Assembly (NCBI GenBank): GCA_963704645.1
Contig: OY969926.1
Location: 704,001 to 768,000 of the forward strand
Source of the DNA: an uncultured bacterium
Lineage (GTDB): Bacteria > Patescibacteriota > JACMRA01
DNA: 64,000 bases
Direction: 5' to 3'
Below, in pieces: positions 4,534 through 62,686 of this stretch. The notes under the pieces are model-generated. The model made no database searches, was not told where the DNA came from, and saw only the letters and a program-made list of their open reading frames with translations. The position numbers and the translations under genes were made by a program. Positions within the stretch are counted from its first letter, which is position 1; each line of letters opens with the position of its first letter.

Positions 4534-4938
4534 CTAAATGGAGGTTTGAAGCAAAATTATGAAATATGGGTAAAATTGCAAACTTAAAATTAGTAAACAA
4601 TAAAAAGCAGATATTAAAATTAAATTTCTAGTCCATCTGTATTTAGACGAAATAAAGAAATTTATACAATAAAATATAAAGAAACCTATTCCAGTTATTA
4701 ATAATATTGTGGGGTAAGGCAAAGCCGTTTCCAATCTATTAGCTAAAATTGGATCTTGATTAATATATTTAGGATTACTTAAAAACCAAATACAAAGTAT
4801 AGAAAGAGTTGCAAACCATCCCCAAACTAATATCCAAGGAGTTAGTAAAAAACCTATACCAAAGCGTTTTAAACTAGCTTGATTTAAGTTTTGCTTCCAG
4901 TAAGTTTGAACAGACTTAAGATATTGATTTTCGTCCAT
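4534..4938 (-). CDS. Hypothetical membrane protein
   Basis: Three hydrophobic segments; directly downstream of clpP. Confidence 0.6.
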   Translation of the reverse strand: MDENQYLKSVQTYWKQNLNQASLKRFGIGFLLTPWILVWGWFATLSILCIWFLSNPKYINQDPILANRLETALPYPTILLITGIGFFIFYCINFFISSKYRWTRNLILISAFYCLLILSLQFYPYFIILLQTSI

Positions 4939-4950
4939 GATGATTCTAAT

Positions 4951-5589
4951 CTAAGCTTTTTCAGTTCCAATAATTTTATCTACAATACCGTATTCCACAG
5001 CTTCTTTTGCGTCCATATAATAATCTCTGTCCATATCTTTTTCTAGCTTTTCTACAGTTTGACCAGTTTTTTCTGCCATAAATTTATGGCCTAAATCCTT
5101 AGTTTTTAATATATTTTTTGCTCTAATTGAAATATCGCTGGCCTGTCCTTCAGCACCTCCAAGTGGTTGGTGAATCATAACTTCTGCATGAGGTAAAATT
5201 AATCTTTTTCCTTTGGCTCCGTTGGCTAAAATCAAACTACCTGCCGAAGCTGCCATTCCAATACAAATTGTAGAAACGTCTGGTTTAATTAAATTCATTG
5301 TATCAATAATTGACCACATTGAAGTTACGCTTCCACCAGGGGTATTAATGTACATTGTAATGTCTTTAGTTGAATCTTCGCTTTGTAAATAAAGTAACTG
5401 TGCAACCACAATACTCGCCATTGCGTAATCAATTGGTTCTGTTACCATGATAATTCTTTCGTCTAACAATCTGGAAAACAAATCCATACTTCTTTCTCCA
5501 TCTGTGCTTCTTTTAATTACCATCGGCACTAAAGAGCTGGTGATATTGTTTTTAGAAATAGATGATATTTCTAGGTTATTAATGTTCAT
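4951..5589 (-). CDS. clpP: ATP-dependent Clp protease proteolytic subunit
   Basis: DLFSRLL, YINTPGG, GMAASAG, MIHQP, DRD motifs. Confidence 0.96.
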
Positions 5590-46140: not shown

Positions 46141-46572
46141 ATGCTTGAGCAACAACTGTACGCCGTTAGTTATGTGCTGTTAGATACTTTTCATTCGCTA
46201 ATCTTTATACTATTCGGAATTTGTGCGGCTAGATTTTTTCTAGTAAAAGATGCTCCATATAGTTCAATGTATGTTGGAATTGTTGCCTTTATACAAGCAG
46301 TTTACAACGGCTGTCCGCTTACAGATGTAGTAAATTTATTTGCTGTAAAATCTGGCAATACAGCAATTGGTAACGAATTTTTGTTTGTATTTTTTGATTG
46401 GTATTGGTTTTCACGAATTTTAATTTTGTGTGTTTCTTTGCTTTTACTATATCATAGTTATGTAACTTGGAATAACCCTAGAACTATTGTTGATTTTAGT
46501 AGAGTGCTTAGGTTTTCAAACTTGACATCTTTCCTTACAAGAATGAAGACTTTACATATGTGGCGGGTATAG
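46141..46572 (+). CDS. Hypothetical membrane protein (GCPLT motif)
   Basis: Three TMs; stop codon lies inside tRNA-Gly. Confidence 0.6.
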   Translation: MLEQQLYAVSYVLLDTFHSLIFILFGICAARFFLVKDAPYSSMYVGIVAFIQAVYNGCPLTDVVNLFAVKSGNTAIGNEFLFVFFDWYWFSRILILCVSLLLLYHSYVTWNNPRTIVDFSRVLRFSNLTSFLTRMKTLHMWRV

Positions 46573-46636
46573 TTTAGTGGTAGAACTTAACCTTCCCAAG
46601 GTTGTGGTGTGGGTTCAATTCCCGCTACCCGCTCCA
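46563..46636 (+). tRNA. tRNA-Gly(CCC)
   Basis: GCGGGTA/TACCCGC stem, TTCCCAA loop, TCCA end. Confidence 0.93.
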
Positions 46637-46650
46637 GTATTTAAATGCAG

Positions 46651-46734
46651 GCGGTCGTGGTGGAACGGTATACACGCTACCTTGAGGTGGTAGTGCTGAA
46701 AAGCTTGGAGGTTCAAATCCTCTCGACCGCACCA
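46651..46734 (+). tRNA. tRNA-Leu(GAG)
   Basis: GCGGTCG/CGACCGC stem, TTGAGGT loop, long variable arm, ACCA. Confidence 0.93.
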
Positions 46735-46788
46735 TACAAAACACATTACAATTTGCTTATTTATAAATTCAAGAATTGTTAAACACAA

Positions 46789-46875
46789 GCCATTGTGGCG
46801 GAATTGGTAGACGCACTGGACTCAAAATCCAGCGAGAGCAATCTCATGAGGGTTCGATTCCCTCCGATGGCACCA
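46789..46875 (+). tRNA. tRNA-Leu(CAA)
   Basis: GCCATTG/CGATGGC stem, CTCAAAA loop, long variable arm, ACCA. Confidence 0.93.
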
Positions 46876-47747: not shown

Positions 47748-49004
47748 CTATTTCTTTTTTTCTTTCTTATCGTCTGCAACTGTTTCAGATTTCCTCATTT
47801 CCTTGGCTGTTTTTTGCTGTTTCCAAACTAAGTATCCAACAGCACCTAGTAAACCTAGAATAATTACACCTCCTCCAATTCCAAGACCAATGAACAAAGC
47901 GTTGTTGTTATCTTTTGATTCTTCTTTCTTTGGCTCTACAATGGCTTCCTTAATAGTGTTTTCTTGGCCACTATTTGTTGGAGTGTTAGTATTTTGTACT
48001 GGGGTTGTAGATTTAGGACGATTAGCTTTTGTGGTTTCAAAATCACTCTTAATTTTGGCTAAATCAGCTTCTGTTAAGTTAAATTCTGTTGTATATGTTT
48101 TTGTTGAAGATACATCTTTCACATTTTCCTTGTTAAAGGTAATTATTGGGGGGTTAGTAAAATTAAATGTAGCCTTGTATTTTCCAACTGTCCACTTAGC
48201 TTTAGTTGCAAAAGCTGGAATAGAAATTGGATTATCTTGAGATGCGAAATCTCTGTCAAAATCTGATGTAACTTTACCTGATGGTGTTTCAATTTCAATG
48301 GTCCCTTTAATTTTTTGGAATACATTACCTGTGTTTTTAATTGTCATTCCTAAAAATACATTGTCATAAGGTTGCATAAAGTTAGACTTTACAAAGTCTT
48401 GATATCCAGATGAATTTGGTTGATTAAATTCAAATTTAGGTAGTTCAGCGCCTGTTTTTAAGTCTCCTGGTACGGAAATATATATTCTAGCTCCAACTCT
48501 GTTAATAACATTGAAACCTGAAGTTCCTGTAGTTGGTTTAATTTCTTGCACTGCTAATACACCAGCATATTCGCCTGAAGAAGTATTTTCTGGAACTTTA
48601 ATTGTAAACTTAACTTCAATAGCTTTCTGAGCAGGAATTACTACTTTATCTGTGCTAAGGCTAATCCAGGTTCCAACGTCTTTTAATTCTTCCTTATCGC
48701 TGAAAGTAAATTGATCGGTGTTCTTAATTCTGTCTTCTGGAGAAAGCATGATGGTTTTTTCCTTATCACTTAAATTTGAAACAAGGGCAATTCTTTCTAC
48801 AGATTCACCAGCTTTTAAACTTTGAATAAACCATGCTCTAGTTAAAGATTGGGCTGGGTCGCTTTGGGCAGGTTGAATTGCAATTCCGTCAATTGCTCTA
48901 ACACCAGCTGGTGTTTCTTGAGCTAAAACTGAAAAAAAGTTGATGGGGGAGGGAGTTAATAAAACTAATAAAAATAGTAAGGATGTGATTTTTTTGAGGG
49001 ACAT
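47748..49004 (-). CDS. DUF916/DUF3324-like WxL-interacting protein with C-terminal TM anchor
   Basis: Signal peptide, WF...LKAG, V.N.S, F.I.VP.....GEYAG, RVGARIYISVPG, IKNTGNV, TM plus basic tail. Confidence 0.75.
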   Translation of the reverse strand: MSLKKITSLLFLLVLLTPSPINFFSVLAQETPAGVRAIDGIAIQPAQSDPAQSLTRAWFIQSLKAGESVERIALVSNLSDKEKTIMLSPEDRIKNTDQFTFSDKEELKDVGTWISLSTDKVVIPAQKAIEVKFTIKVPENTSSGEYAGVLAVQEIKPTTGTSGFNVINRVGARIYISVPGDLKTGAELPKFEFNQPNSSGYQDFVKSNFMQPYDNVFLGMTIKNTGNVFQKIKGTIEIETPSGKVTSDFDRDFASQDNPISIPAFATKAKWTVGKYKATFNFTNPPIITFNKENVKDVSSTKTYTTEFNLTEADLAKIKSDFETTKANRPKSTTPVQNTNTPTNSGQENTIKEAIVEPKKEESKDNNNALFIGLGIGGGVIILGLLGAVGYLVWKQQKTAKEMRKSETVADDKKEKKK

Positions 49005-49105: not shown

Positions 49106-49750
49106 TTAACTTACTGAGTAAGTTGCAGTTCCTTGGTATTGTTGTGCTTTCAAACTGATACTGGTAGGCGCTGGGTATAAACCGTAAGCTGGGATATCAA
49201 TTTCAGCGTTAACATCAACAGTGTATGTACCATTTCCATTTCCTGAGGAAGCGGAGATAATACCGAAAGTATTACTTTCACCTGCTGCTGCAACAGTTGA
49301 TAATGCAGTGATTTCAACTTGAGAAGTAGGAGTTGTTAAACCTGCTGTGTTTCCAGAAACAGTTGTTTGACCGCTTGGAGTTACACGTAAGTATTTAGCA
49401 GCTGTACCGAAGTTGGCTGTAACGTCTGAAGCTAAAAGAATAATTTTAGTAGCATCAGTTTGACCAGTTAAGTTAGTAAACTTAACATCAGCAGACCATC
49501 CAGATAGAGAACCAGTGGTGTCAATAATAGTTGTGTCTAAAATGTCTCCAGTGGAGGTTTGTAATGTGTTTGCAATTGTGATTGCGCTTAAAGTAGCGGA
49601 AGCAGCAGCTGTGATAGTTCTTGTTCCACCATTAACAGTTAAGTTAAGAGTAGTGTTAGAGTTTCCTTGTGCGGAAGCAGGAACTACACCAGCAACAGCT
49701 AAAAGGCTACCTAAAAGAATAGCGGATTGAACTTTTTGAGACAATGTCAT
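49106..49750 (-). CDS. Small WxL-like secreted protein
   Basis: Signal peptide, TLNLTVNGG, DTTGSLSGWSA, terminal YQGTATYSV match the WxL domain layout with degenerate motifs. Confidence 0.65.
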   Translation of the reverse strand: MTLSQKVQSAILLGSLLAVAGVVPASAQGNSNTTLNLTVNGGTRTITAAASATLSAITIANTLQTSTGDILDTTIIDTTGSLSGWSADVKFTNLTGQTDATKIILLASDVTANFGTAAKYLRVTPSGQTTVSGNTAGLTTPTSQVEITALSTVAAAGESNTFGIISASSGNGNGTYTVDVNAEIDIPAYGLYPAPTSISLKAQQYQGTATYSVS

Positions 49751-49869: not shown

Positions 49870-50168
49870 AAAATTTAGAATTGAACCTGTCTCCACACTC
49901 GTCACATATAAAATCTTACCTCCCAAAACATGTACTTGGATTGACTAAAGTCTCATACTTTACGCTTCAATCTCTATAGCCTAGCCAGTATACAAGCTTT
50001 CAGGGGTGGTGAATAAGGTTTTTGTCTAGAGTTAAATTTCGCTTGATTACTGTCAGCAACATGGTCACAGGCTTAATTTCAAATTTGCCAAAAAACTAAC
50101 AAAAGCCTACTCTTATAATAAATTTGAAATCTTCTTATAGATTTTAGAATATAAACAAAAACAAAATT

Positions 50169-53100
50169 ATGTTGCAGAAACAAAGCCAGTACTTTAAGCT
50201 TTTACACAAAAATAGAATATACTTATTCTTGTTTCTTATTTTTCTAACTATTGGTGCAACAGTTTCTTTAATTTATAATAATAATTTCAGAACAGCTTTT
50301 GCAGCTAATGAACCAATAATTAGTTTAGCTTTATCTCAAAAGTCTGGTACTGCTCCATTTACTGGGACTTGCACACCAGGAGGGAATACATATACACCAG
50401 GAGAAGATGCTTGTGATACTGATAATGTAGTTAGAACTTTAGATAATGTAGAGTTTAATTGGACTGTATCTGTAACTAGCGATCCTGCTAATAATGTTAC
50501 AATTACTCAAGTTTTGCCTAATGGTTTGACTTTTAATGGCGTAGTTTATAATCAGGGTGGTGGAACATCTGCAACTTTAAACTTACCTGTATTTTGTAAA
50601 ACTGGGGCAGGTTTTAATCCTCAATCTAGTATTACAGATAGTACTTTAGTTTGTAACCTTGGTTCATTCACAGCTGGTACTTCTACTACTACTAATTATA
50701 CTCAGATATTTGCTAAAGTTAAAGGAGATAATCCTAATGCAGCAAATATTTCTATTCCTTCTATTTCAGCGAATGCAGATTCAAACATTACAGCTGGAAC
50801 TAAGATTAGTAGTGTTAGCTCTAATGTTACCCCTAGTTTGATTGTTAGCGCCAGTCCTAAGTATGACGTGTTTTTAGCAAACAACATAGATACTTCAGTT
50901 CTTGAAAGTGTACTTAGTCCCACTGGCGAAGAAGGTGTATTAACAAGTGGGGTTGCAGTTAGTGCCAAATATGTTGGAATAAAAGGTGTGGAAATGATAC
51001 AGCAGCCGTTTAGTATTGATGTAACTTTGGAATATGTAAGCACTCCGGCCAGCGGTCAAACTTTTGAGGGAGCTAGATTTTACGATTGGGGTGATGTTTC
51101 AAAACTTGGGTGTACAGGTGCTGTAAGTATTGGAGGGTTTTTAAATAGCCCAAATGTAAATTGCAATCAGATATCCGGCCCTGGGAGTGCAGTAAGAGTA
51201 AATTTTAATAGTTTAGATTTATCTGGTACGCTTACAACAAATAAAATGTTTGCCAATACTCTCAACTCACCTGATCTTACTGTAGTTTCGCAGAAAGTAC
51301 GCTTTTGGATACCTAAAGCCGACTTTGATAAAATCTCAGGAACGTCTTTTCAATGGAGAGCTAGAGCTTCTAATTTTAATCTGGTAAGTATATCAGGAAC
51401 ACAAAATAATGGCACAGGCATTGAAACTAATACTGCAAACAATCTTGGAGCTACGAGTTCACTATTATATAATCCAGCCAATCCAGTTGGGGCAAGTATT
51501 CAATCTGGTTCTGGTGCTAACTTTGGATTGATTCAAAACTTGGTGATTGGAGGTGGATATGCCGCTGTGGGTGAAGCTACAGGTATTTCAGTTACAATTG
51601 GACAGCCTATAAATAGCTATTTTACAACTATCAATAATTTTTCAGTCTGTGCAGTGTTAGACACTAGTATTGCAAACCTACGGGGGCCTGCAGCTGGTTC
51701 AGCTGGATTTATTCCAGTTGCTGATCAGATAGACTTTTCAAGCGCAATATACGAATACGCAGCAATTCCAAACTTTGCTACAGCTAATTCTTGCGAGGAT
51801 ACCGATGGAACTTGGGTTACCTATGCAGATATTGGTAGTATTGGAGGCCTAGATGCAGTTACTAGAATTAGAGCAAGGAATGTTAACAATTTAAAACCAT
51901 TTTTGCCCTCTTCTTCAAATGCTCGTTTTGCGGTTCCTGTAAAAGTTAAAGACTTTCTCCCTACTTTAAATATAGCTTATTCACTACAAAAAGCATTCAC
52001 AAAATTTGGATCTGGATCTTGGGTAGGCGGGGGTGGGGGTGCCAACACATATGTTAATTTACTACCTAGAACATCTAAGGTTATTTTGGCAGACGGAACA
52101 AACAATAATACAAACACTGTTCTTTTAAACAATCCTGCAGGTAGTAGTAATACTATAAAATATGCTCTTCAATTTGGCTCATCCTCTGCTCTTACTGATC
52201 CTAGTAAACTTCATACCCTTAGTGTTAGAGAAAGGTTGCCAGTAGGCCAAAGATATTTAGTGGGTTCAGCACTCTTGGGTACTAGTGCAATTGAGCCCAC
52301 AAGCACTATTCTAAATGCCGATAATACTCAGGATTTGACTTGGGTATTTTCAGATATTCCATTTAATAGCCCCTTACGAACCATAACCTATAAAACAAAC
52401 GTTTCTGCCTTTACGCCAACAGGCACACCAATTTTAAATCAAACGGTAGCCACAAGTCCAGAATTTTTTAATGGAGATATACGGCCATTTTATACCAGTT
52501 ATACAGACTTTAATACTTTTAATACTGCGTTTAATTCTTCAACTAGTTGTAATAATACTACTATGTGTACCTCCTCCACAATAACCGTCCAAAACCTATC
52601 CTCCTTCGCGGTAGAACAAGTTCCAAATAATCCACTGATTGAAAAGAATAAAGATCTTGGTTTCACACTTCGTTATGGTAATTTGGATACACTTAACCCT
52701 GTAGCTTCCTCAACGCATATTAATGTATTTCCTTTTAGCGCTCAAACACCACCACGCTCTCCTGCCACCTCCTTTACAGGTAATCTTGTTTTCAAAGGTT
52801 TAGTTGTAGCTCCAAATAGTGCTAGTTCAGACCCTGCTGTGGTTAATACTAATGACAACATAACAGGTGGTGCTGGTACTGTTCAATATACTAAAGCAGT
52901 AAGTAGTAGTATAGCTTCTGATCCATGTGATGTTAGTAACAATCCTGCTGGCTCGCCCGTAAACACTAATCCAAGATGTGCTGGTGTAGATGGTTCTGTA
53001 ATTGGCACAGGAAGCACTATCTGGTGTGATGCTTCTCTAGATCCTGCTACTCCTAGTATTAAAAACTACTCAATCTTAAACAATGCTGGAGTTTATTCTG

Positions 53101-56012
53101 GAACCAATGGAGCAAACTCTTCAACTTGTCCTACTACTCTTTCTGAAGTAACGGCTTTTAGATTAGTTACAGGCTCTCTTCCTATTGCTTCTGGTTCTGG
53201 TGGAACTATCTATGAAGTTAAAGCTAACTTTGGTACTAATGGAAATACCAATAGTAATATCTACACTAACTTATCTCAAGCCAGAGCTGAAGGTATTGCT
53301 ACAGTTGCTACATCTAATAGTGCAGTAACCAGAGTAAGTAGTGGAAGTGTAAGTGGAAATATATTTAATGATAAAGACAGCAATGGAATAAAAGATATTC
53401 TAGCTACTATTCCTAATCCAAACTTTGATCCAGGCCTACCAACTGATCCTATCTCCAACCCTGAAACTATCACCAACCCAGAAAGTGACTTTGATCTTAG
53501 TGGGGTAAGCGTAGAACTAAGATACGGTACTGGTAATTTAGATGAAAACAACCTTCCAATTGCTGAGGGAAGTTTAATTACAACTGTAACTACTGATTCA
53601 ACTGGAAACTACACTTTCCCTAATATCTCAAGCGGTAACTACACCGTAGTTGTACTTCAAAACGGTATTCCTCTTTCTATTCAAACTACAGACAAAGACT
53701 TTGCATTAGACTTAGCTGCTAATCCAGGCTCTCCAAACAATACTCTTTTAGATAACTCAACGCCAATTACTTTAACATATACCAACGGAGTGGGTGTAAA
53801 CAATATTTCTAATGCAAACTTTGGATACAACCAATACAGCAGACTTACTGGTAAACTTTATGCTGATACAAATAACAATGGAATTCAAGATGATGGAAGT
53901 GTAAATGGTAACCCAGCTGAACCAGACTTTAACTCTACCACTAATCTAATTCCAACTGGTACCAGTGTAGTTATTACTTCTACAACAACACCAAGTATTA
54001 CTTACACTTTAACTACAGCAACATCTTCTACAGTTGTAAGTGGCTTTACTACAGGCAGCATTAACAACAGCGGTGTTGGTTCAAGTTTTGGATCCTTTTC
54101 TCAAGACTTACCTGTAGGAGAATATACCGTAACTGTTCTTACCGCCAATCCTAAATACATTGTTTCAGTTTCAACTCAGCTTGGTGATGCTGTTGGAGCT
54201 AACCCAAGTACACTAACTGTTAGCTTTGGTCAAACAAGAAGTTCTGGAAATGATGGATTACACCTTGTTCAAATTCAAAATACAGATATTGACTCTATTG
54301 CTTGTAACCCAACTACAACAAATGTTGATACAACCACAGATTGTACTGTTACTTTAGTAGCCGGTAGAAACTTTAATGCTTTAAGTGGAAGTATAGACTT
54401 TAGAATAGGCGATGGAATTGCAGGACAAGGTGGAACTGTTAAAACCTGCTCTATTCCTGTTACTGGTAATGGAGGAACTGGCAGTGATGGAACTATTACA
54501 GTTACAACTTTAACTTGTACGGGTATAACTGTAGGAAGTAATATTGGTATTTTCCCAGCAAGTTTTAAAACAAGCAACGATACAACTTTCATTACAGGAT
54601 CAAGCCCAACTAATATTACAGTAATTAATACAATTCAACCTAGTGATATTGACAGCATAGTTTGCCAAAGTCCTAAAGTAGTTAATGCAACTACAGACTG
54701 TGTTGTTACTCTAACTGCCAATGCCGTAAGTAGTAACAGAGCCTTTAACAATTTAACTGGTAGTATTGCTCTTAAAATATCTGATGGTATACTTTTAACT
54801 TGTCCTAACTTTGCATCGTCTACTTCACCTTTTAACACTCTAAATTGTAATGCAGTTTCTGTAGGAAGCTTAATAAGTTCTGGAAATGGATATACTGTGA
54901 ACTATGCTCTTAATGCTAGCACAACTACAACTGACGCACCTAATACTCCAAGTAAAAGCAATTATGTAGTGGTTAACAATACAATTCAACCTTCTAACCT
55001 ATCTAGTGTGGTTTGTGATAGTCCTAAACTAATTAACCAAACAACAGACTGTGTAGTTACTTTGGTAAGTGGAAATAGTTTTGCTAACTTATCTGGTGAC
55101 ATTAAAATTAAGATTAATGATGGACTTGAAACCTCATGCCCTGCCTTCTCTTCCTCAATTACTCCGTTTAACACCTTAACATGTACAGTAATTCCAGTAG
55201 GAACTTTAATTGGAACTTTCAAACCGGCCTATAGTTTAAGTAGTTCAGCAGCAATAGACACATTAAGTACTGATGTGGTTGTTTCTAATCCAGTTGATGA
55301 AACTATCTTGTCTAATCCATCAACTACAATTAATTGCCAAACAAATCAAATAAACTCTATTACAACTTGCACTTTCACTCTTCCTACAAATACTACTTTA
55401 GCCTCAGGATTAAAACTAGGTATTGGAGATTCTACACCAGCAGGAACTTGTATAGTAACTAATGCAACTACAGAAGAAGTAACTTGTACAGGTGTACCAA
55501 CAGGATCTTTAATAGGGCAACAAATTATTAAAGTGCAGATAGCCTCTGCAGCTGTGGTAGATACAACTAGTACTGCACTAGTAACAGACACTCCTTGTTC
55601 AACAACCAATCCTTGTGCTATTCTAGATTCTAGTCTAACCTACAACCCAACCCAAGCCCTAGCCAAAAGATATGGAGCTTCTGGTTCTACAAACTCAGAT
55701 AACCTAATACTAACTCTAAAAGATACAAGATTAGAACAATCTGGATTTACTACAACATGTTCCATAAAATATAAATTCAGAACAGATACAAGCTACAGAA
55801 TATTAACAACAAACTCTACCTACAATAATACTACAGGATGTACAGGAAACCTTCTTAAAGCAAATCAACTATTATTCAATGTAGACTTTGAAATAACTGC
55901 AATAACTACAAATACAACTACAAACACTACAAAGAACTATCTAATCTATTCCAACTACGATTTCAAAGCTGGTTCTATTGGAGTTACTTCTATTGGAGGA
56001 AGTGGGTTGTAG
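50169..56012 (+). CDS. Large secreted adhesin-like protein (DUF11-like, two SdrD-B-like domains, Cys-containing Ig-like repeats, shared C-terminal domain)
   Basis: Signal/TM; GSVSGNIFNDKDSNG...TDSTGNYTF; TGKLYADTNNNG; repeats IDSI.C....TTDC.VTL; ends GSIGVTSIGGSGL. Confidence 0.8.
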   Translation: MLQKQSQYFKLLHKNRIYLFLFLIFLTIGATVSLIYNNNFRTAFAANEPIISLALSQKSGTAPFTGTCTPGGNTYTPGEDACDTDNVVRTLDNVEFNWTVSVTSDPANNVTITQVLPNGLTFNGVVYNQGGGTSATLNLPVFCKTGAGFNPQSSITDSTLVCNLGSFTAGTSTTTNYTQIFAKVKGDNPNAANISIPSISANADSNITAGTKISSVSSNVTPSLIVSASPKYDVFLANNIDTSVLESVLSPTGEEGVLTSGVAVSAKYVGIKGVEMIQQPFSIDVTLEYVSTPASGQTFEGARFYDWGDVSKLGCTGAVSIGGFLNSPNVNCNQISGPGSAVRVNFNSLDLSGTLTTNKMFANTLNSPDLTVVSQKVRFWIPKADFDKISGTSFQWRARASNFNLVSISGTQNNGTGIETNTANNLGATSSLLYNPANPVGASIQSGSGANFGLIQNLVIGGGYAAVGEATGISVTIGQPINSYFTTINNFSVCAVLDTSIANLRGPAAGSAGFIPVADQIDFSSAIYEYAAIPNFATANSCEDTDGTWVTYADIGSIGGLDAVTRIRARNVNNLKPFLPSSSNARFAVPVKVKDFLPTLNIAYSLQKAFTKFGSGSWVGGGGGANTYVNLLPRTSKVILADGTNNNTNTVLLNNPAGSSNTIKYALQFGSSSALTDPSKLHTLSVRERLPVGQRYLVGSALLGTSAIEPTSTILNADNTQDLTWVFSDIPFNSPLRTITYKTNVSAFTPTGTPILNQTVATSPEFFNGDIRPFYTSYTDFNTFNTAFNSSTSCNNTTMCTSSTITVQNLSSFAVEQVPNNPLIEKNKDLGFTLRYGNLDTLNPVASSTHINVFPFSAQTPPRSPATSFTGNLVFKGLVVAPNSASSDPAVVNTNDNITGGAGTVQYTKAVSSSIASDPCDVSNNPAGSPVNTNPRCAGVDGSVIGTGSTIWCDASLDPATPSIKNYSILNNAGVYSGTNGANSSTCPTTLSEVTAFRLVTGSLPIASGSGGTIYEVKANFGTNGNTNSNIYTNLSQARAEGIATVATSNSAVTRVSSGSVSGNIFNDKDSNGIKDILATIPNPNFDPGLPTDPISNPETITNPESDFDLSGVSVELRYGTGNLDENNLPIAEGSLITTVTTDSTGNYTFPNISSGNYTVVVLQNGIPLSIQTTDKDFALDLAANPGSPNNTLLDNSTPITLTYTNGVGVNNISNANFGYNQYSRLTGKLYADTNNNGIQDDGSVNGNPAEPDFNSTTNLIPTGTSVVITSTTTPSITYTLTTATSSTVVSGFTTGSINNSGVGSSFGSFSQDLPVGEYTVTVLTANPKYIVSVSTQLGDAVGANPSTLTVSFGQTRSSGNDGLHLVQIQNTDIDSIACNPTTTNVDTTTDCTVTLVAGRNFNALSGSIDFRIGDGIAGQGGTVKTCSIPVTGNGGTGSDGTITVTTLTCTGITVGSNIGIFPASFKTSNDTTFITGSSPTNITVINTIQPSDIDSIVCQSPKVVNATTDCVVTLTANAVSSNRAFNNLTGSIALKISDGILLTCPNFASSTSPFNTLNCNAVSVGSLISSGNGYTVNYALNASTTTTDAPNTPSKSNYVVVNNTIQPSNLSSVVCDSPKLINQTTDCVVTLVSGNSFANLSGDIKIKINDGLETSCPAFSSSITPFNTLTCTVIPVGTLIGTFKPAYSLSSSAAIDTLSTDVVVSNPVDETILSNPSTTINCQTNQINSITTCTFTLPTNTTLASGLKLGIGDSTPAGTCIVTNATTEEVTCTGVPTGSLIGQQIIKVQIASAAVVDTTSTALVTDTPCSTTNPCAILDSSLTYNPTQALAKRYGASGSTNSDNLILTLKDTRLEQSGFTTTCSIKYKFRTDTSYRILTTNSTYNNTTGCTGNLLKANQLLFNVDFEITAITTNTTTNTTKNYLIYSNYDFKAGSIGVTSIGGSGL

Positions 56013-56175
56013 GGGGTAATCATTGAAATTCACAACACTATGTAGGGGAGATGCTTGTCATCTCCCAGGGGTAAGGGGATGGGGAGTGGACTTTAGTATG
56101 GGAATACTTTAACTCAACAACACCAAGTAGGGGAGATACCCTATCTCCCTGGGTAAACGAAGGGAAAGGAGGGAA
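55635..56175 (+). repeat. 541-bp perfect direct repeat, copy 1
   Basis: Identical by eye to 58051-58591; last 125 codons, stop and 163 nt downstream. Confidence 0.92.
56042..56149 (+). repeat. Two GTAG-tagged REP-like hairpins with G-tracts
   Basis: GTAG-GGGAGATG-CTTGT-CATCTCCC and GTAG-GGGAGATA-CCC-TATCTCCC; repeated at 58458-58565. Confidence 0.75.
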
Positions 56176-56247
56176 GGAAATCATCTCCAATCCCCTTTGC
56201 CCAAACCCAAAAAACAAAATACAATAAAACAAAACCAAAACAAAAAT

Positions 56248-58428
56248 ATGAATCAAAAATCATTTCCTAAAAAAGGTAATATTCTAAAATCATTCCTTCA
56301 ATCTAAAAAAGGACAATATTCTTTATTCTCTTTATTAACACTTTCTGTATTATTAATATCTGGATTATTTACTTTCTCTTTATTACAAAATACTGACACA
56401 GCATTAGCTGCTTTAAATTGTCCTGCTGGTTCTACTGTAAGTGGAAATACTTGTATATCTAATACTCCTTCTTCTTATACTTGTCCTGCTGGTCAGACTG
56501 TTAGTGGAACTAGTTGCATTACTACAAGTTGTCCTCAAGGTGGGGATTTAAGTGGTGGAAGTTGTGTAGCCAGTAATGCAAGTCCAGTGCAGACTAATGA
56601 TGCATGCCCAGTTTACACTTTTGGAGGAGCAACTCTTCAATCAGAAGCATTGGTTAGTGGTATTTCATTTTGTTTTACTGAGGGCGCAGAAGGTTCTAAT
56701 GCCAGTGTTACATATAATATAAATAATTGTAATTTAGGCTATGACTCTAATATTATACAGAATTACAATCAACCGACTTATGGAATTCCAGTAAATTATT
56801 TTGGAAGTACTGGGTCTTTTGTCTCCAGCTTTGGGGGGGCTGGTTCTACTTACCAATCTCCAAATGGTATTTGTGCTGGTGTAGTTCAATACGCACTAGG
56901 AGCAAATAATGAACCAGATATACAAAGAGTTTACGCTTACTGGAAAAAAGGACTATACACTTCTGTATATTCCTACACCGCCACAACCACCACCACAGGC
57001 TCAGCCACACCAGTCTACGGAACAGCAGTAACCCCAACTTCCTACACCCCAGAACCAGGCCAAATCACAGGTCTAACCTGTACACCTTCTAGCGTTGTAG
57101 CCTCAGGAACAGTAAACTGTAGCGGACAAGCCACAGGAGCACCAAGTGGAGTACCTTATGCAGGAAACATTACAGTAACAATAGACAACGGAGGAGGAAG
57201 TATAACAACTACAATAAACCCAGACGGAACTTTCACAGCTTCTTCAGTACCAGTAGGAACAACCACAGGAACTAAAGCAGCTACAACTAACTTAGGAGGA
57301 ACAACTTCTATTACAGTTACAGCAGCTTCTATCACAGTAGACCCAGACCTAGCTTCAGGCCCAGGAAGTTTATCTAACTCTACAGATTGTACAAGTGCAA
57401 AGAACGTAACTATTGGAACTGTCTACACTTGTTCTTTCCCAATCAACGGAACAGGCCCATTTGTATTACCAGCAGGAGGAATACAAGCTAGAACCAATCA
57501 AAGTGCAAACAACTCTACCCCAGTAAACACATGTACCATTGCAGCTTCAGTATTAACCTGTACAGGAATAACAACAGTAGGAACACCAAGTACATTAATA
57601 GCAGGAACTGGTAATGTACAATTAGGTAAGGGAACAACTCCAGCTACTTGGAACACTAAGGGAGTAGTTACCTTGGTAGCTGCCACCTCCCCCCTAACCA
57701 CAACCGACATCCCTTCCCTTACAGTAACATGTGGAGTAGGAGGAACTCCTGGAACAGTAAGAGTAAACACTACAACAACTTGTACCTTCACTCTTCCTAC
57801 AAACAAAACATTACCAAATAACTTCAAACTAGGAATAGGTAATGCAACCCCTGCAGGAACTTGTACTGTAGGAACAGGAATAAACTCTAGTCTAGTAACT
57901 TGTATTAACGTACCAACAGGAACACTTCTTGGAACACAACCTATTAACGGACAAATAGGAACTGAAACAATAACACCTACAGGAGAAACAGTAAATGTAA
58001 TAGATTCACTATGTTCCACAACTAACCCATGTGCCCTATTCGAAACAGCACTAACCTACAACCCAACCCAAGCCCTAGCCAAAAGATATGGAGCTTCTGG
58101 TTCTACAAACTCAGATAACCTAATACTAACTCTAAAAGATACAAGATTAGAACAATCTGGATTTACTACAACATGTTCCATAAAATATAAATTCAGAACA
58201 GATACAAGCTACAGAATATTAACAACAAACTCTACCTACAATAATACTACAGGATGTACAGGAAACCTTCTTAAAGCAAATCAACTATTATTCAATGTAG
58301 ACTTTGAAATAACTGCAATAACTACAAATACAACTACAAACACTACAAAGAACTATCTAATCTATTCCAACTACGATTTCAAAGCTGGTTCTATTGGAGT
58401 TACTTCTATTGGAGGAAGTGGGTTGTAG
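56248..58428 (+). CDS. Secreted Cys/Thr-rich adhesin-like protein with shared C-terminal domain
   Basis: ATG 56248 after A/C-rich leader; CPAG.T.SG..C repeats; Ig-like repeats homologous to the upstream gene; identical last 125 aa. Confidence 0.8.
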   Translation: MNQKSFPKKGNILKSFLQSKKGQYSLFSLLTLSVLLISGLFTFSLLQNTDTALAALNCPAGSTVSGNTCISNTPSSYTCPAGQTVSGTSCITTSCPQGGDLSGGSCVASNASPVQTNDACPVYTFGGATLQSEALVSGISFCFTEGAEGSNASVTYNINNCNLGYDSNIIQNYNQPTYGIPVNYFGSTGSFVSSFGGAGSTYQSPNGICAGVVQYALGANNEPDIQRVYAYWKKGLYTSVYSYTATTTTTGSATPVYGTAVTPTSYTPEPGQITGLTCTPSSVVASGTVNCSGQATGAPSGVPYAGNITVTIDNGGGSITTTINPDGTFTASSVPVGTTTGTKAATTNLGGTTSITVTAASITVDPDLASGPGSLSNSTDCTSAKNVTIGTVYTCSFPINGTGPFVLPAGGIQARTNQSANNSTPVNTCTIAASVLTCTGITTVGTPSTLIAGTGNVQLGKGTTPATWNTKGVVTLVAATSPLTTTDIPSLTVTCGVGGTPGTVRVNTTTTCTFTLPTNKTLPNNFKLGIGNATPAGTCTVGTGINSSLVTCINVPTGTLLGTQPINGQIGTETITPTGETVNVIDSLCSTTNPCALFETALTYNPTQALAKRYGASGSTNSDNLILTLKDTRLEQSGFTTTCSIKYKFRTDTSYRILTTNSTYNNTTGCTGNLLKANQLLFNVDFEITAITTNTTTNTTKNYLIYSNYDFKAGSIGVTSIGGSGL

Positions 58429-58591
58429 GGGGTAATCATTGAAATTCACAACACTATGTAGGGGAGATGCTTGTCATCTCCCAGGGGTAAGGGGATGGGG
58501 AGTGGACTTTAGTATGGGAATACTTTAACTCAACAACACCAAGTAGGGGAGATACCCTATCTCCCTGGGTAAACGAAGGGAAAGGAGGGAA
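58051..58591 (+). repeat. 541-bp perfect direct repeat, copy 2
   Basis: Identical to 55635-56175 (offset 2416). Confidence 0.92.
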
Positions 58592-58658
58592 TGGGTGTAT
58601 TTTGACGAAAAATTTATCTACAATAATTATTGTTTTAGAAACACATTTTATTATTTAT

Positions 58659-59660
58659 ATGTCCAAACCTACAATGTTAACAGGAGATAGGCCAACGGGG
58701 CCGCTACATATTGGCCACTATTTTGGCTCTTTGGTTAATAGGAAAAAATACCAGAATGAATATAAAACTTTCATAATGGTGGCTGATGTACAGGCTTTAA
58801 CTGATAATTGGGATAATCCTGAAAAAGTTAGGCAAAATGTTTTTGAAGTGGCTGTAGATAACATGGCTTTAGGCTTAGAAGCAGAAACTAAGTTGTTCAT
58901 TCAAAGCCAAATTCCCCAAATAGCCGAATTAACAGTATATTTTTCTAACCTTGTCACTATTAACCGTTTAAAAAGAAATCCAACGGTTAAAACTGAAATT
59001 GAACAAAAGAAAGATAAGTTTGGAAGCGAAGGTGAGAGTTTGACTTTTGGGTTTTTAGGTTACCCAATTTCACAAGCCGGAGATATTACTTTGGTTAGAG
59101 CTAATATTGTTCCAGTTGGTGAAGATCAGTTGCCAGTAGTAGAACAGACCCAAGAAATTGTGGAAAAATTTAACAGAATTTATAAGCAAAATGTTTTTCC
59201 TTACCCTAAAGCACTTTTGTCTGAATCGCCTAGAATTTTGGGTTTAGATGGAAATGCTAAAATGAGTAAAAGCTTAAACAACTGTATATATTTAAAGGAT
59301 GACGAAGACACTACAATTGCTAAAATTAAAGTAGCTAAAACAGATTCCATTTCCGAAATTTATTTTGACGAAGAAAACAGACCAGAAATTTCCAACTTAA
59401 TTAGAATGTATGGTCTAGTAAATAATATTTCAATAGAAAAGGCTGCAGAAGATTTGAAAGGGTTAAATAATTCAGCTTTTAAACAAAAGTTGGCCACAGA
59501 TATGAACCTATATTTTGCAGAATTTAGAGCCAGAAGACTTCAAATTGCTAACAATCCAAAGCTTGTATGGGAAAAGCTTGAAGAGGGCAGGCAGGCAGTG
59601 TTAAAAGAGGCTGAGCTAACCATGGCAGAGTTAAGGAAAGCTATGAGAGTGGATTATTAA
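58659..59660 (+). CDS. trpS: Tryptophanyl-tRNA synthetase
   Basis: TGDRPTGPLHIGH, YP.SQA.DI, VPVGEDQ, KMSKS. Confidence 0.96.
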   Translation: MSKPTMLTGDRPTGPLHIGHYFGSLVNRKKYQNEYKTFIMVADVQALTDNWDNPEKVRQNVFEVAVDNMALGLEAETKLFIQSQIPQIAELTVYFSNLVTINRLKRNPTVKTEIEQKKDKFGSEGESLTFGFLGYPISQAGDITLVRANIVPVGEDQLPVVEQTQEIVEKFNRIYKQNVFPYPKALLSESPRILGLDGNAKMSKSLNNCIYLKDDEDTTIAKIKVAKTDSISEIYFDEENRPEISNLIRMYGLVNNISIEKAAEDLKGLNNSAFKQKLATDMNLYFAEFRARRLQIANNPKLVWEKLEEGRQAVLKEAELTMAELRKAMRVDY

Positions 59661-62568: not shown

Positions 62569-62686
62569 AGACTATTCATTTAAAAGAAAGAAAAGTTATT
62601 GCTTTAGTCAAGCCTATACTTGACACAACTTACGAATCGGGGAAGTTTTAATAGTTTTTCCGTTAAAATCAAATTAATATAAATAT

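Follow-up and report, generated by a model that had tools for sequence, protein, structure and literature searches.

Two large genes in the analysed window (a stretch of 64,000 nucleotides, to whose positions all coordinates refer unless the genome is named) belong to a dispersed family of twelve genes, which has probably been reshaped by general homologous recombination, with the shared 3′ arm being overwritten and internal modules being moved between copies. A first, sequence-only reading had described the two as an adhesin pair ending in an identical 541-bp block. The block is exact, as positions 55635–56175 and 58051–58591 agree in 541 of 541 bases at an offset of 2416, but the pair turned out to be part of a family scattered over the genome. 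The following features of the two genes and their surroundings are relevant here:

50169–56012, forward strand: gene 1 (M06), 1947 amino acids, from the open reading frame and its translation
56248–58428, forward strand: gene 2 (M07), 726 amino acids from the ATG at 56248 (743 if started at the TTG at 56197)
58011–58428, forward strand: family C-terminal domain (CTD) of about 139 codons, an orphan beta-sandwich carried by twelve ORFs (AF2 pLDDT 78.8)
55635–56175, forward strand: exact block, copy 1 (CTD core of 125 codons, stop codon and REP array), 541/541 against copy 2
58051–58591, forward strand: exact block, copy 2, 541/541 against copy 1
56211–56247, forward strand: A-rich (AAAAC)n-like leader directly 5′ of the ATG of gene 2 (TRF)
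58602–59660, forward strand: unrelated class I Trp/Tyr tRNA synthetase gene (PF00579, E 2.8e-52), marking the end of the shared DNA

The block takes in 125 codons with their TAG stop, followed by 163 bases of non-coding DNA; on its 5′ side an identity of about 75–88% continues for a further ~280 nt (offset 2413) before the alignment turns into noise. Gene 1 begins with a hydrophobic leader at its N-terminus and ends in the family CTD; the long body between them is rich in Thr, Ser and Asn and contains Ig-like repeats. Gene 2, whose database representative also has 726 amino acids, encodes in order a leader, Cys-rich repeats, a unique core, a Thr-rich linker, three Ig-like domains and the CTD. 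No Shine-Dalgarno motif adjoins the start of gene 2, and leaders resembling its (AAAAC)n-like one precede all thirteen family genes, including the relative M13 described below. All Pfam matches of gene 1 (SdrD_B, CarboxypepD_reg and SpaA) were below threshold, and MSCRAMM or SdrD-type domains were not found above it: the matches, confined to gene 1, were SdrD_B with 27.9 bits, where 29.7 are required, and a second one with 18.1 bits, where 23.1 are required.

The genome is a single contig of 1.27 Mb and belongs to the Patescibacteria. The CTD was matched in 12 of its 1342 ORFs at E <= 5.7e-42, and eleven of the twelve genes are 93–100% identical in DNA across this domain, while the 541-bp block has eleven DNA copies that are 97–100% identical over 377–541 nt. 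A thirteenth relative, M13, carries in place of the CTD a C-terminus composed of LPRTG, a transmembrane segment and RARTKKLI; together with the twelve CTD genes it occupies 3.5% of the genome. The members are assembled from a few classes of 5′ leader (3–4), domain-sized internal modules and a common 3′ arm, formed by the CTD and usually followed by GTAG-headed REP hairpins. Gene 2 starts with MNQ, as do six further members (M02, M03, M04, M08, M09 and M11) and M13, with MNQK in five of these others. All twelve CTD genes have a leader and a start, and all except the frameshifted M10 are intact. Apart from short elements, no partial copies of the CTD or of the modules were found outside the family genes, and no accessory gene recurs within 7 kb of any family member.

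The CTD genes end in ...GSIGVTSIGGSGL and lack an LPXTG signal, M13 alone having an LPXTG-type end. Two sortase genes are present in the genome and, because they occur together with an LPXTG relative, the cell is probably monoderm. The family proteins are predicted from their sequences to be secreted and are probably located at the cell surface, where they probably act in attachment. The CTD itself has no match in Pfam or NCBIfam and no usable match in the Atlas; a Foldseek search against the PDB returned only generic Fn3/Ig-like sandwiches (E >= 0.03, the best being 0.03, and TM <= 0.43). The full-length AF2 model of gene 2 is poor (pLDDT 48); its better-predicted beta domains are separated at the module borders (residues 265, 480, and 589–602), which gives these borders weak support.

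Evidence for exchange comes from comparing the two genes with their paralogues elsewhere in the genome. Three blocks are shared with such paralogues:

52575–56021, forward strand: 3450-bp block, 99.9% identical to M12 (genome 1127704–1131153; blastn)
57041–58553, forward strand: 1513-bp block, 99.7% identical to M02 (genome 485559–487071)
57681–58553, forward strand: last Ig-like domain and CTD, 96.8–99.7% identical to M01, M02, M04 and M08, starting in the linker ATSPLTTTD

Downstream of the border between M06 and M12, 3438 of 3443 aligned columns are identical, compared to 1398 of 2599 upstream (99.85% vs 53.8%); the border is abrupt, and over the 2.4 kb on its 5′ side identity is only about 54%. 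For M07 and M02 the corresponding values are 1385 of 1390 columns within the block and 524 of 1136 upstream (99.64% vs 46.1%), with Fisher p <= 2e-256 for the contrast across these two borders. Between paralogues, identity thus steps from about 50% to more than 99.6% over a few bases, and the proposal of a mosaic of exchangeable modules with sharp borders is borne out. From 57681–57686 onward five paralogues become 96.8–99.7% identical; the position at about 57658–57720, previously likened to an empty slot between two Ig-like repeats, is therefore a real border, but it encodes the linker ATSPLTTTD and is no empty slot. Relative to the stop codon, borders are found repeatedly at -745, -450, -417 and -377 nt, and these too are abrupt. 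M09 and M11 share an identical 5′ arm of 660 nt and a 3′ arm of 980 nt that is 98.9% identical, with an unrelated centre of about 500 nt between them. M08 combines the leader of M09/M11 with a CTD of the M01/M02/M07 type, and M10 the leader of M12 with a CTD of the M09/M11 type. Within the CTD, 37 of 420 columns are variable, copy-specific sites among them, and the four-gamete test fails for 55 of the 378 pairs formed by informative sites with two alleles.

An identity of 99.7–100% over 0.5–3.45 kb is also what a mis-join would produce, and all comparisons within the genome depend on one assembly, in which repeats of up to 3.45 kb could hide errors. It could accordingly be argued that near-identical blocks were collapsed or pasted when this metagenome-derived assembly was made, as the short-read assembly of a congener indeed breaks at the family genes. 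We consider such an artefact highly improbable: the copies differ at the copy-specific sites mentioned above and have different flanks, and the blocks lie in frame within long intact ORFs at twelve places. In addition, contig ends from an independent run agree with the junctions between paralogues in the assembly. The Logan contigs of this single shallow DNA run, which contains 0.25 of the words and whose gaps are uninformative, comprise 15 short pieces with six loose ends, of which two are stubs of 18–22 nt and the four longer ones all correspond to paralogue or repeat junctions already in the assembly; no further junctions were seen in that run. No RNA run containing the stretch is listed.

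The comparison with the congener indicates how the copies came to be so alike. The loci M02, M03, M08 and M11 are common to both species as judged by their flanking genes, with one flank per locus, since the congener contigs break inside the family genes (their ends overlap one another by 127–200 nt at 98–100%). In a tree of the CTDs the eleven similar copies form one clade with a support of 100/100, and grouping by locus was rejected both for M11 with the congener copy G025 C25 (AU p 4e-52) and for M08 with G025 C33 (AU p 5e-40), the groups for these AU tests having been chosen after the first tree was seen. M03, which is not homogenised, groups with its syntenic orthologue. The CTDs are no more than 76% identical to those of the congener, compared to 77–81% for the DNA of the tRNA synthetase and FtsA. 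As the CTDs cluster by genome although several of their loci are shared with the sister species, their sequences point to concerted evolution by gene conversion. The CTDs of the congener are far less uniform (65–98%), and the family is therefore not always homogenised.

The likeness of the copies could alternatively reflect youth, if a CTD gene or its 3′ end had spread to many places not long ago, in a burst of duplications accompanied by domain accretion. The internal branches of the eleven-copy clade (<=0.044, against 0.32 for its stem) would agree with this, as would four identical IS copies that attest to recent mobility in the genome and at least one locus that is filled in the congener and apparently empty in this organism (genome 766571–766678). 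However, M02, M08 and M11 have conserved flanks and family genes in the congener, which means that these loci predate the split and their CTDs do not; moreover, the variants are reticulate and the groupings by leader and by CTD disagree. A burst is therefore unlikely to account for the family. Recombination between paralogues is the only reading that accounts at once for the jumps in identity, for the reticulate variants and for the grouping of the CTDs by genome.

The process that we infer is RecA-type gene conversion together with double crossovers between shared stretches, possibly including DNA taken up from relatives. Repeated overwriting of the 3′ arm would keep the eleven copies 93–100% identical, and the movement or replacement of whole domain modules would leave each gene with a different patchwork. 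The 541-bp block is probably the most recent tract converted between the two tandem neighbours, and it would simply end where their homology ends. At borders with unrelated upstream DNA, homologous exchange is impossible, and a second, distant arm or an older illegitimate event is needed. A RecA gene is present in the genome and general RecA-type recombination is enough. The idea of a recombination-driven surface diversification system can thus be retained as far as recombining mosaics are concerned, but not in the sense of a dedicated system; exchange may still be continuing.

Several known mechanisms of variation were considered and discarded. A diversity-generating retroelement does not apply, as reverse transcriptase (PF00078) had no match anywhere in the genome and the copies are near-identical, without variation specific to A positions. 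For site-specific inversion, a single weak inverted pair (31 nt, 77%) was found in 13 kb, and the Pfam scan of the neighbouring genes revealed no recombinase or reverse transcriptase, in agreement with what had been noted before. A silent-cassette system is not compatible with copies that each have their own leader and start, because there is then no expression site served by promoterless cassettes. With respect to phase variation, the region contains no long perfect repeat, and the only long homopolymers are a G7 inside M07 and an A9 before M12.

The non-coding part of the 3′ arm is G-rich and contains the following elements:

56009–56015, forward strand: GTAGGGG heptamer containing the TAG stop codon (56010–56012), from the sequence
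56042–56066, forward strand: GTAG-headed, REP-like hairpin 1, from DNA folding and sequence
56127–56149, forward strand: GTAG-headed, REP-like hairpin 2, from DNA folding and sequence
56045–56084, forward strand: four G-tracts with REP hairpin 1 as the first loop, a relaxed G4-like motif from a regex scan

The stop codon lies within GTAGGGG in nine of the twelve CTD genes and within GTAGGGA in one. GTAGGGG occurs at 77 + 61 sites in the genome (138), and GTAGGGGAGAT at 14 + 7. Short imperfect palindromes with a GTAG head and many copies, two of them folding into hairpins here, are characteristic of REP or BIME elements. Like other GTAG-headed REP elements, these are short, G-rich, multi-copy hairpins 3′ of genes, with a head that doubles as the TAG stop; here the array travels inside the conversion tract of a gene family. 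The family thus offers a case of REP elements that ride within conversion tracts and supply stop codons. An Rfam search of the window and two family loci gave tRNAs only, and the shared 3′ flank matched no RNA family.

C-rich starts and G-rich ends had been proposed as marks of the module borders. Among the 35 listed block starts, 22 reach or exceed the 94th percentile for C (24-nt windows of the family); these rows are not independent and reduce to about eleven distinct borders, of which six are always C-rich, two straddle the cut-off and three lack this enrichment (-450, -434 and the leader-internal starts). Of the four C-rich starts named in the first reading, three, at ~52571, at the start of the exact repeat and, roughly, at ~56978 (border 57041), do lie at or near the borders of paralogue blocks. 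The C-rich starts consist of codons for domain-initial motifs of the Thr/Pro/Ser type. The G-rich ends are real as well, but they correspond to REP hairpins and a G-rich spacer. Since motif codons and REP elements account for them, these marks need not be signals.

As an alternative, exchange could be programmed, with the leader and the CTD-REP block serving as dedicated arms and hairpin or G4-like DNA in the G-rich flank, or a REP-associated enzyme, stimulating a directed exchange of cassettes. In favour of this, the module borders are marked in composition, an element of four G-tracts with a hairpin loop follows seven of the twelve family genes, and the shared modules of both species carry an A-rich synonymous signature. 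However, the seven copies represent one repeated element and no independent enrichment, and canonical G4 motifs are absent from the block and from the gene ends (five occur genome-wide, of which one is near a family gene, M12, on the other strand). Furthermore, M04 and M10 have CTDs that are 96–99% identical although homology ends at the stop codon, that is without a REP block, and eleven of the twelve CTD genes are unbroken and have a leader of their own, which leaves no silent cassettes. No dedicated enzyme is encoded among the neighbours scanned with Pfam or recurs beside the family. Y1 transposase (PF01797) has no match in the genome at E <= 0.001, and a candidate RAYT-type ORF matches weakly, with 18.8 bits where 23 are required. 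Programmed variation is thus distinctly unlikely. The same low probability applies to a broader proposal, in which the leader and the CTD-REP flank would be kept as dedicated arms of an active, population-level system through which an ultra-small, epibiotic bacterium would reshuffle its modules for host attachment, with hairpin or G-tract DNA by the stop codon stimulating conversion like the pilE G4. If this were true, such a process would have left the A-rich synonymous signature, seen on the recombining subfamily of both species, as its footprint.

Under the preferred reading, general recombination among paralogues, the family fits the known opa/bab-like recombining surface families: twelve CTD genes and one relative have alike ends and variable interiors, with abrupt identity jumps and incongruent segments, and paralogues of one genome resemble each other more closely than positional orthologues of the two species do, the latter being assigned from one flank per locus. 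Opa proteins are small outer-membrane barrels with pentamer-repeat phase variation, the content of bab loci is swapped by gene conversion, MASP proteins carry a GPI anchor signal, and variation at pilE/pilS proceeds by gene conversion, which replaces segments with those of related copies. Neisseria opa (PMC13183285 and PMC2265424) resembles the family in its scattered, full-length and separately expressible loci with a conserved framework and inter-locus mosaics. In contrast to Opa, the family proteins are large, multi-domain and predicted to be secreted, and their 5′ regions carry imperfect AAAAC runs and no long perfect repeat or homopolymer except the A9 before M12. The babA/babB/babC genes and Hop paralogues of H. 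pylori (PMC4552749) likewise have alike 5′ and 3′ ends, a variable middle and fixed loci; these are, however, outer-membrane adhesins of a pathogen at three loci, whereas here there are twelve loci, an orphan CTD and homology that extends into non-coding REP DNA. The MASP family of Trypanosoma cruzi (PMC2691823) is similar in its sizeable share of the genome and differs in being eukaryotic and having hundreds of genes. The pilE/pilS system is comparable in the replacement of segments between related copies and in the G-rich DNA beside the recombining region, but here there is no expression site, no promoterless cassette and no canonical G4, and homogenised copies exist without the G-rich flank.

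The prevailing view of ultra-small Patescibacteria is that they live attached to other microbes, and little is known about how they recognise their hosts. PMC11809585, which cites Neisseria pilE/pilS with its G4 as ref. 75, deals with large surface proteins of Patescibacteria, suggests domain reshuffling via homologous recombination on the basis of a lack of full-length homologues, and asks whether antigenic variation is involved. The family described here is a different one, with no match to FhaB or DUF2341, and its reshuffling is seen directly among the paralogues of one genome. What was speculation there becomes measurable, with twelve loci, unique flanks, known borders and a conserved tail domain as a handle. 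By taking up such a share of a small genome, occurring in one order only and re-dealing its domains, the family is a strong candidate for an attachment repertoire.

Finally, base composition at four-fold sites varies along both genes, against genome means of A.36, C.12, G.07 and T.45 (4685 windows). Both had been described as having an A/C-skewed 3′ part, which suits gene 2 well and gene 1 at its end only. In gene 2, T reaches.73 in 56248–56519, above the 99th percentile (.68); 56521–56970 is mixed (A.40, T.44), and 56971–58050 has A at.62–.63, which is at the 99th percentile, with T at.22–.25 and G at 0. In gene 1, T is.61 in 50169–50850 and composition is mixed in 50850–52571; from 52572 to 55349 T remains high (.50) and G falls to.03, and only the last ~660 nt are A-rich (.48–.53). 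GC skew is below zero from ~52350. The A-rich signature is synonymous and is found on the shared modules of the recombining subfamily in both species, where it is unusual and unexplained. The replication strand could be ruled out as its source, as A-rich modules occur in genes of both strand kinds; with skew extremes at ~240 and 890 kb, ten of the twelve family genes lie on the leading strand.

The 541-bp block at the 3' ends of the two long window genes is an exact repeat, as the sequence-only reading had stated: 55635-56175 matches 58051-58591 at every one of its 541 positions, and each copy takes in 125 codons at the end of a long ORF, the TAG stop and then 163 non-coding bases. The two genes are:

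Gene 1 (M06): 50169-56012, plus strand, ORF of 1947 aa
Gene 2 (M07): 56197/56248-58428, plus strand, ORF

Immediately 5' of the block they are 75-88% alike for about 280 nt, corresponding to an Ig-like domain, the offset between the genes being shifted by 3; further upstream they are unrelated.

The genome is a single contig of 1,272,640 bp, of which the window represents positions 704001-768000, and it contains eleven copies of the block that match over 377-541 nt with 97-100% identity, and a twelfth at 70%. Among 1342 stop-to-stop ORFs of at least 100 aa, twelve (M01-M12) end in a common C-terminal domain (CTD; matches at E <= 5.7e-42), so that the proposed adhesin pair has to be replaced by a family of twelve genes and one relative, M13. 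The latter carries the family leader (the 5' part of these genes) and Ig-like modules, but its C-terminus consists of LPRTG, a hydrophobic stretch and a basic tail; two sortase genes are present in the genome. Two members have unusual structures:

M13: L028:1237-3753, minus strand; Ig-like modules duplicated; ends in LPRTG, a transmembrane stretch and RARTKKLI, a sortase-type anchor where other members have the CTD
M10: genome 971957-977729 (L028:8461-14230), minus strand; frameshift-split, a 193-aa leader ORF overlapping a 1735-aa body by 14 nt

No homopolymer was found at the M10 frameshift site, and the split gene may be either a pseudogene or a sequencing error. Of the twelve CTD genes, eleven are intact, each with a leader of its own. 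Together the thirteen family genes occupy 44.7 kb (3.5% of the genome), dispersed over 476-1131 kb and partly arranged as pairs, and no recurring neighbour gene was found within 7 kb of any member. All N-termini show a basic stretch, a hydrophobic helix and an Ala-X-Ala-like site, a layout that suggests a putative secretion signal. An A-rich (A4-7C)n run lies directly 5' of the ATG in all thirteen genes (in the window, 50150-50171 and 56211-56250), and no Shine-Dalgarno motif was found at these starts; the pattern AAAACAAAA-N1-12-ATG has six occurrences in the window where 1.7 would be expected.

As an orphan domain, the CTD matches no more than 14 cluster representatives at E <= 1e-30 in a set of 1.84 billion proteins, and it has no match in Pfam or NCBIfam. 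A profile search of the order recovered it in 9 of 27 genomes and 7 of 19 genera, in multiple copies in three of those genomes. Its AF2 model is a beta-sandwich (pLDDT 78.8) whose structural neighbours are generic Fn3/Ig-like folds only (E >= 0.03), while four Cys and a final G-x-I-G-x-x-x-I strand are conserved even at about 30% identity. Since the CTD stands at the position of the LPXTG of M13, and since the N-terminal signal is probably cleaved, we infer that it may serve in wall or envelope attachment, or in binding of a common partner.

Uniform divergence free of breakpoints, the outcome that would have told against the sequence-only reading, is not observed. Family genes switch from unalignable to identical within a few bases at the block starts. 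The last 3.44 kb of M06 and M12 are 99.85% identical (3438/3443 aligned columns) against 53.8% upstream (1398/2599), and the last 1.39 kb of M07 and M02 are 99.64% identical (1385/1390) against 46.1% upstream (524/1136; Fisher p <= 2e-256 for both contrasts). In M09 and M11 a centre of about 500 nt, unrelated between the two, is flanked by a 5' arm of 660 nt without any difference and a 3' arm of 980 nt at 98.9% identity, precisely the layout of a cassette set between conserved arms. Differing subsets of genes have block starts at the same distances from the stop, namely -745, -450, -417 and -377 nt. Three of the four C-rich module starts proposed from the sequence lie at or near such positions (~52571 at 52575, the repeat start at -377, and ~56978 roughly at 57041), and the presumed border at ~57658-57720 coincides with block starts at 57681-57686. 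In a poor full-length model of gene 2 (pLDDT 48) the borders appear to fall between better-predicted beta domains, which lends them weak support.

The generalization that modules start C-rich is only partly borne out. Measured over the 24 nt after each block start, with a cut-off at the 94th percentile of windows taken from the family itself, 22 of 35 listed starts are C-rich; these 35 represent about 11 distinct borders, of which six are always C-rich, two straddle the cut-off and three are not C-rich. The 24-nt stretches encode domain-initial motifs, such as ATSPLTTTD, TYTPEPGQ, LTYNPTQAL and D-x-L-D-x-T/N, and the C-richness arises from Thr/Pro/Ser codons, since these modules use codons ending in C or A.

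Concerted evolution of the tails is indicated by variation within the genome and by comparison with a congener (G025; 30 contigs, 86% complete). Of the 420 CTD columns, 37 are variable across the 11 near-identical copies, and most of these are third codon positions; 55 of 378 pairs of biallelic informative sites show all four combinations, and leader classes conflict with CTD subtypes, for example in M08 and M10. The congener has eight matches. Its CTDs have 65-98% identity to one another and do not exceed 76% to those of the window genome, whereas between the genomes tRNA-synthetase DNA reaches 77% and FtsA DNA 81%. Flanking genes place family genes at the M02, M03, M08 and M11 loci in the congener too, on one flank per locus because its contigs break inside family genes. 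IQ-TREE places the 11 copies in a single clade (support 100/100) and M03 with its own syntenic orthologue (82/89). Forcing M11 or M08 together with its positional orthologue costs 106 and 119 log-likelihood units, respectively (AU p 4e-52 and 5e-40, for groups chosen after sight of a first FastTree). Congener contig ends inside family genes overlap one another by 127-200 nt at 98-100%, and near-identical shared modules therefore exist there too. Module content differs even at a shared locus: the congener gene at the M08 locus encodes a 625-aa M07-like protein with one Ig domain fewer. For the stretch of gene 1 up to residue ~1660, the congener has almost nothing comparable.

Against genome means at four-fold degenerate sites of A.36, C.12, G.07 and T.45 (4685 windows), gene 2 runs from T.73 through a mixed part to A.62-.63 with G 0, and gene 1 from T.61 through a mixed part to a T-rich stretch after 52572 with G down to.03. 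The proposed succession of T-ending, mixed and A/C-skewed parts thus mostly holds, throughout in gene 2, but in gene 1 A-richness is confined to the final ~660 nt. In 9 of 11 genes, four-fold A is.55-.60 in the modules shared at >= 93%, against.36-.46 in unique segments. CTDs of the recombining sets are A-rich in both species (.47-.58; congener loci L010, L013, L021-L024), while M03/G025-C1, an orthologous pair without homogenisation, has ordinary values (.37/.34). Replication strand fails to account for the pattern.

The G-rich stretches taken for module ends are instead REP hairpins with a GTAG head after the stop. The TAG stop is embedded in a GTAGGGG heptamer in nine of the twelve CTD genes and in GTAGGGA in one, with two GTAG-headed hairpins 3' of the heptamer, and GTAGGGG sites are common genome-wide (77 + 61). 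No cognate Y1 transposase matched at E <= 0.001 in the genome, a previously suggested ORF being a weak match (18.8 bits, cut-off 23). In M01, M02, M08, M09, M11 and partly M12 the shared DNA extends to about +300 to +360 nt and includes, 3' of the hairpins, a conserved non-coding element of ~200 nt that ends in a terminator-like hairpin (for example L030, about 4720-5080), has a short form in M05 and M10, and matches no Rfam family. M04 and M10 have no DNA in common with other members past the stop codon, although in the CTD they match them at 96-99%; the flank is therefore unnecessary for homogenisation. A relaxed four-G-tract motif with a hairpin loop, 3' of 7 of the 12 CTD genes, represents a single repeated element and is non-canonical as a G4.

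General homologous recombination between shared stretches is the simplest account of the mosaics, and RecA is present. Conversion tracts would end where homology ends, as for the 541-bp block between tandem neighbours; a double exchange in leader and 3' arm would swap the centre, as in M09/M11; and borders with unrelated DNA upstream would be older illegitimate joins or imports. Relatives' DNA is a candidate source at these loci, its uptake being plausible in Patescibacteria (PMC11809585). The family does not qualify as a diversity-generating retroelement, an inversion system or silent-cassette antigenic variation. As first read, no reverse transcriptase is encoded, here in the whole genome, and no recombinase among the scanned neighbour genes; no usable inverted repeats were found in the region and no truncated donor copies of family genes in the genome. 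Four IS copies, identical over their N-terminal 150 residues, lie elsewhere:

IS ORFs of 357 aa each with an rve integrase core: genome 464115-465185, 652084-653154, 817390-818460 and 864557-865627 (L059:516-1586)

Each is 12-14 kb from a family locus, a proximity noticed post hoc.

The family probably works like the Neisseria opa and Helicobacter bab/Hop genes, which are likewise dispersed expressible paralogues with conserved ends, mosaic through recombination; T. cruzi MASP also has conserved ends and a variable centre. In titles and abstract openings of Patescibacteria literature on gene conversion, concerted evolution, antigenic variation and multigene families, no such family was found described. 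PMC11809585 speculates on domain reshuffling and antigenic variation in other large Patescibacteria proteins, and PMC12102498 mentions antigenic variation for T4SS pilins only. The present family stands out by its distribution across the whole genome, 11 of its tails being near-identical, by evidence from individual loci for concerted evolution, and by the stop codon embedded in a REP.

Some further features of the window were observed. At genome 766571-766678 (window 62571-62678) there is a 107-nt spacer where the congener (C23 end/C13 start) seems to hold a family gene between the same neighbours; its assembly graph branches there and the join is uncertain. Upstream of gene 1, in divergent orientation, lie two more putative surface-protein genes (47748-49004 and 49106-49750, minus strand), one with weak WxL-interacting/Fn3-like matches and the other resembling part of a 2606-aa protein at genome 788990-796807. 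Three tRNA genes are clustered on the plus strand at 46563-46872.
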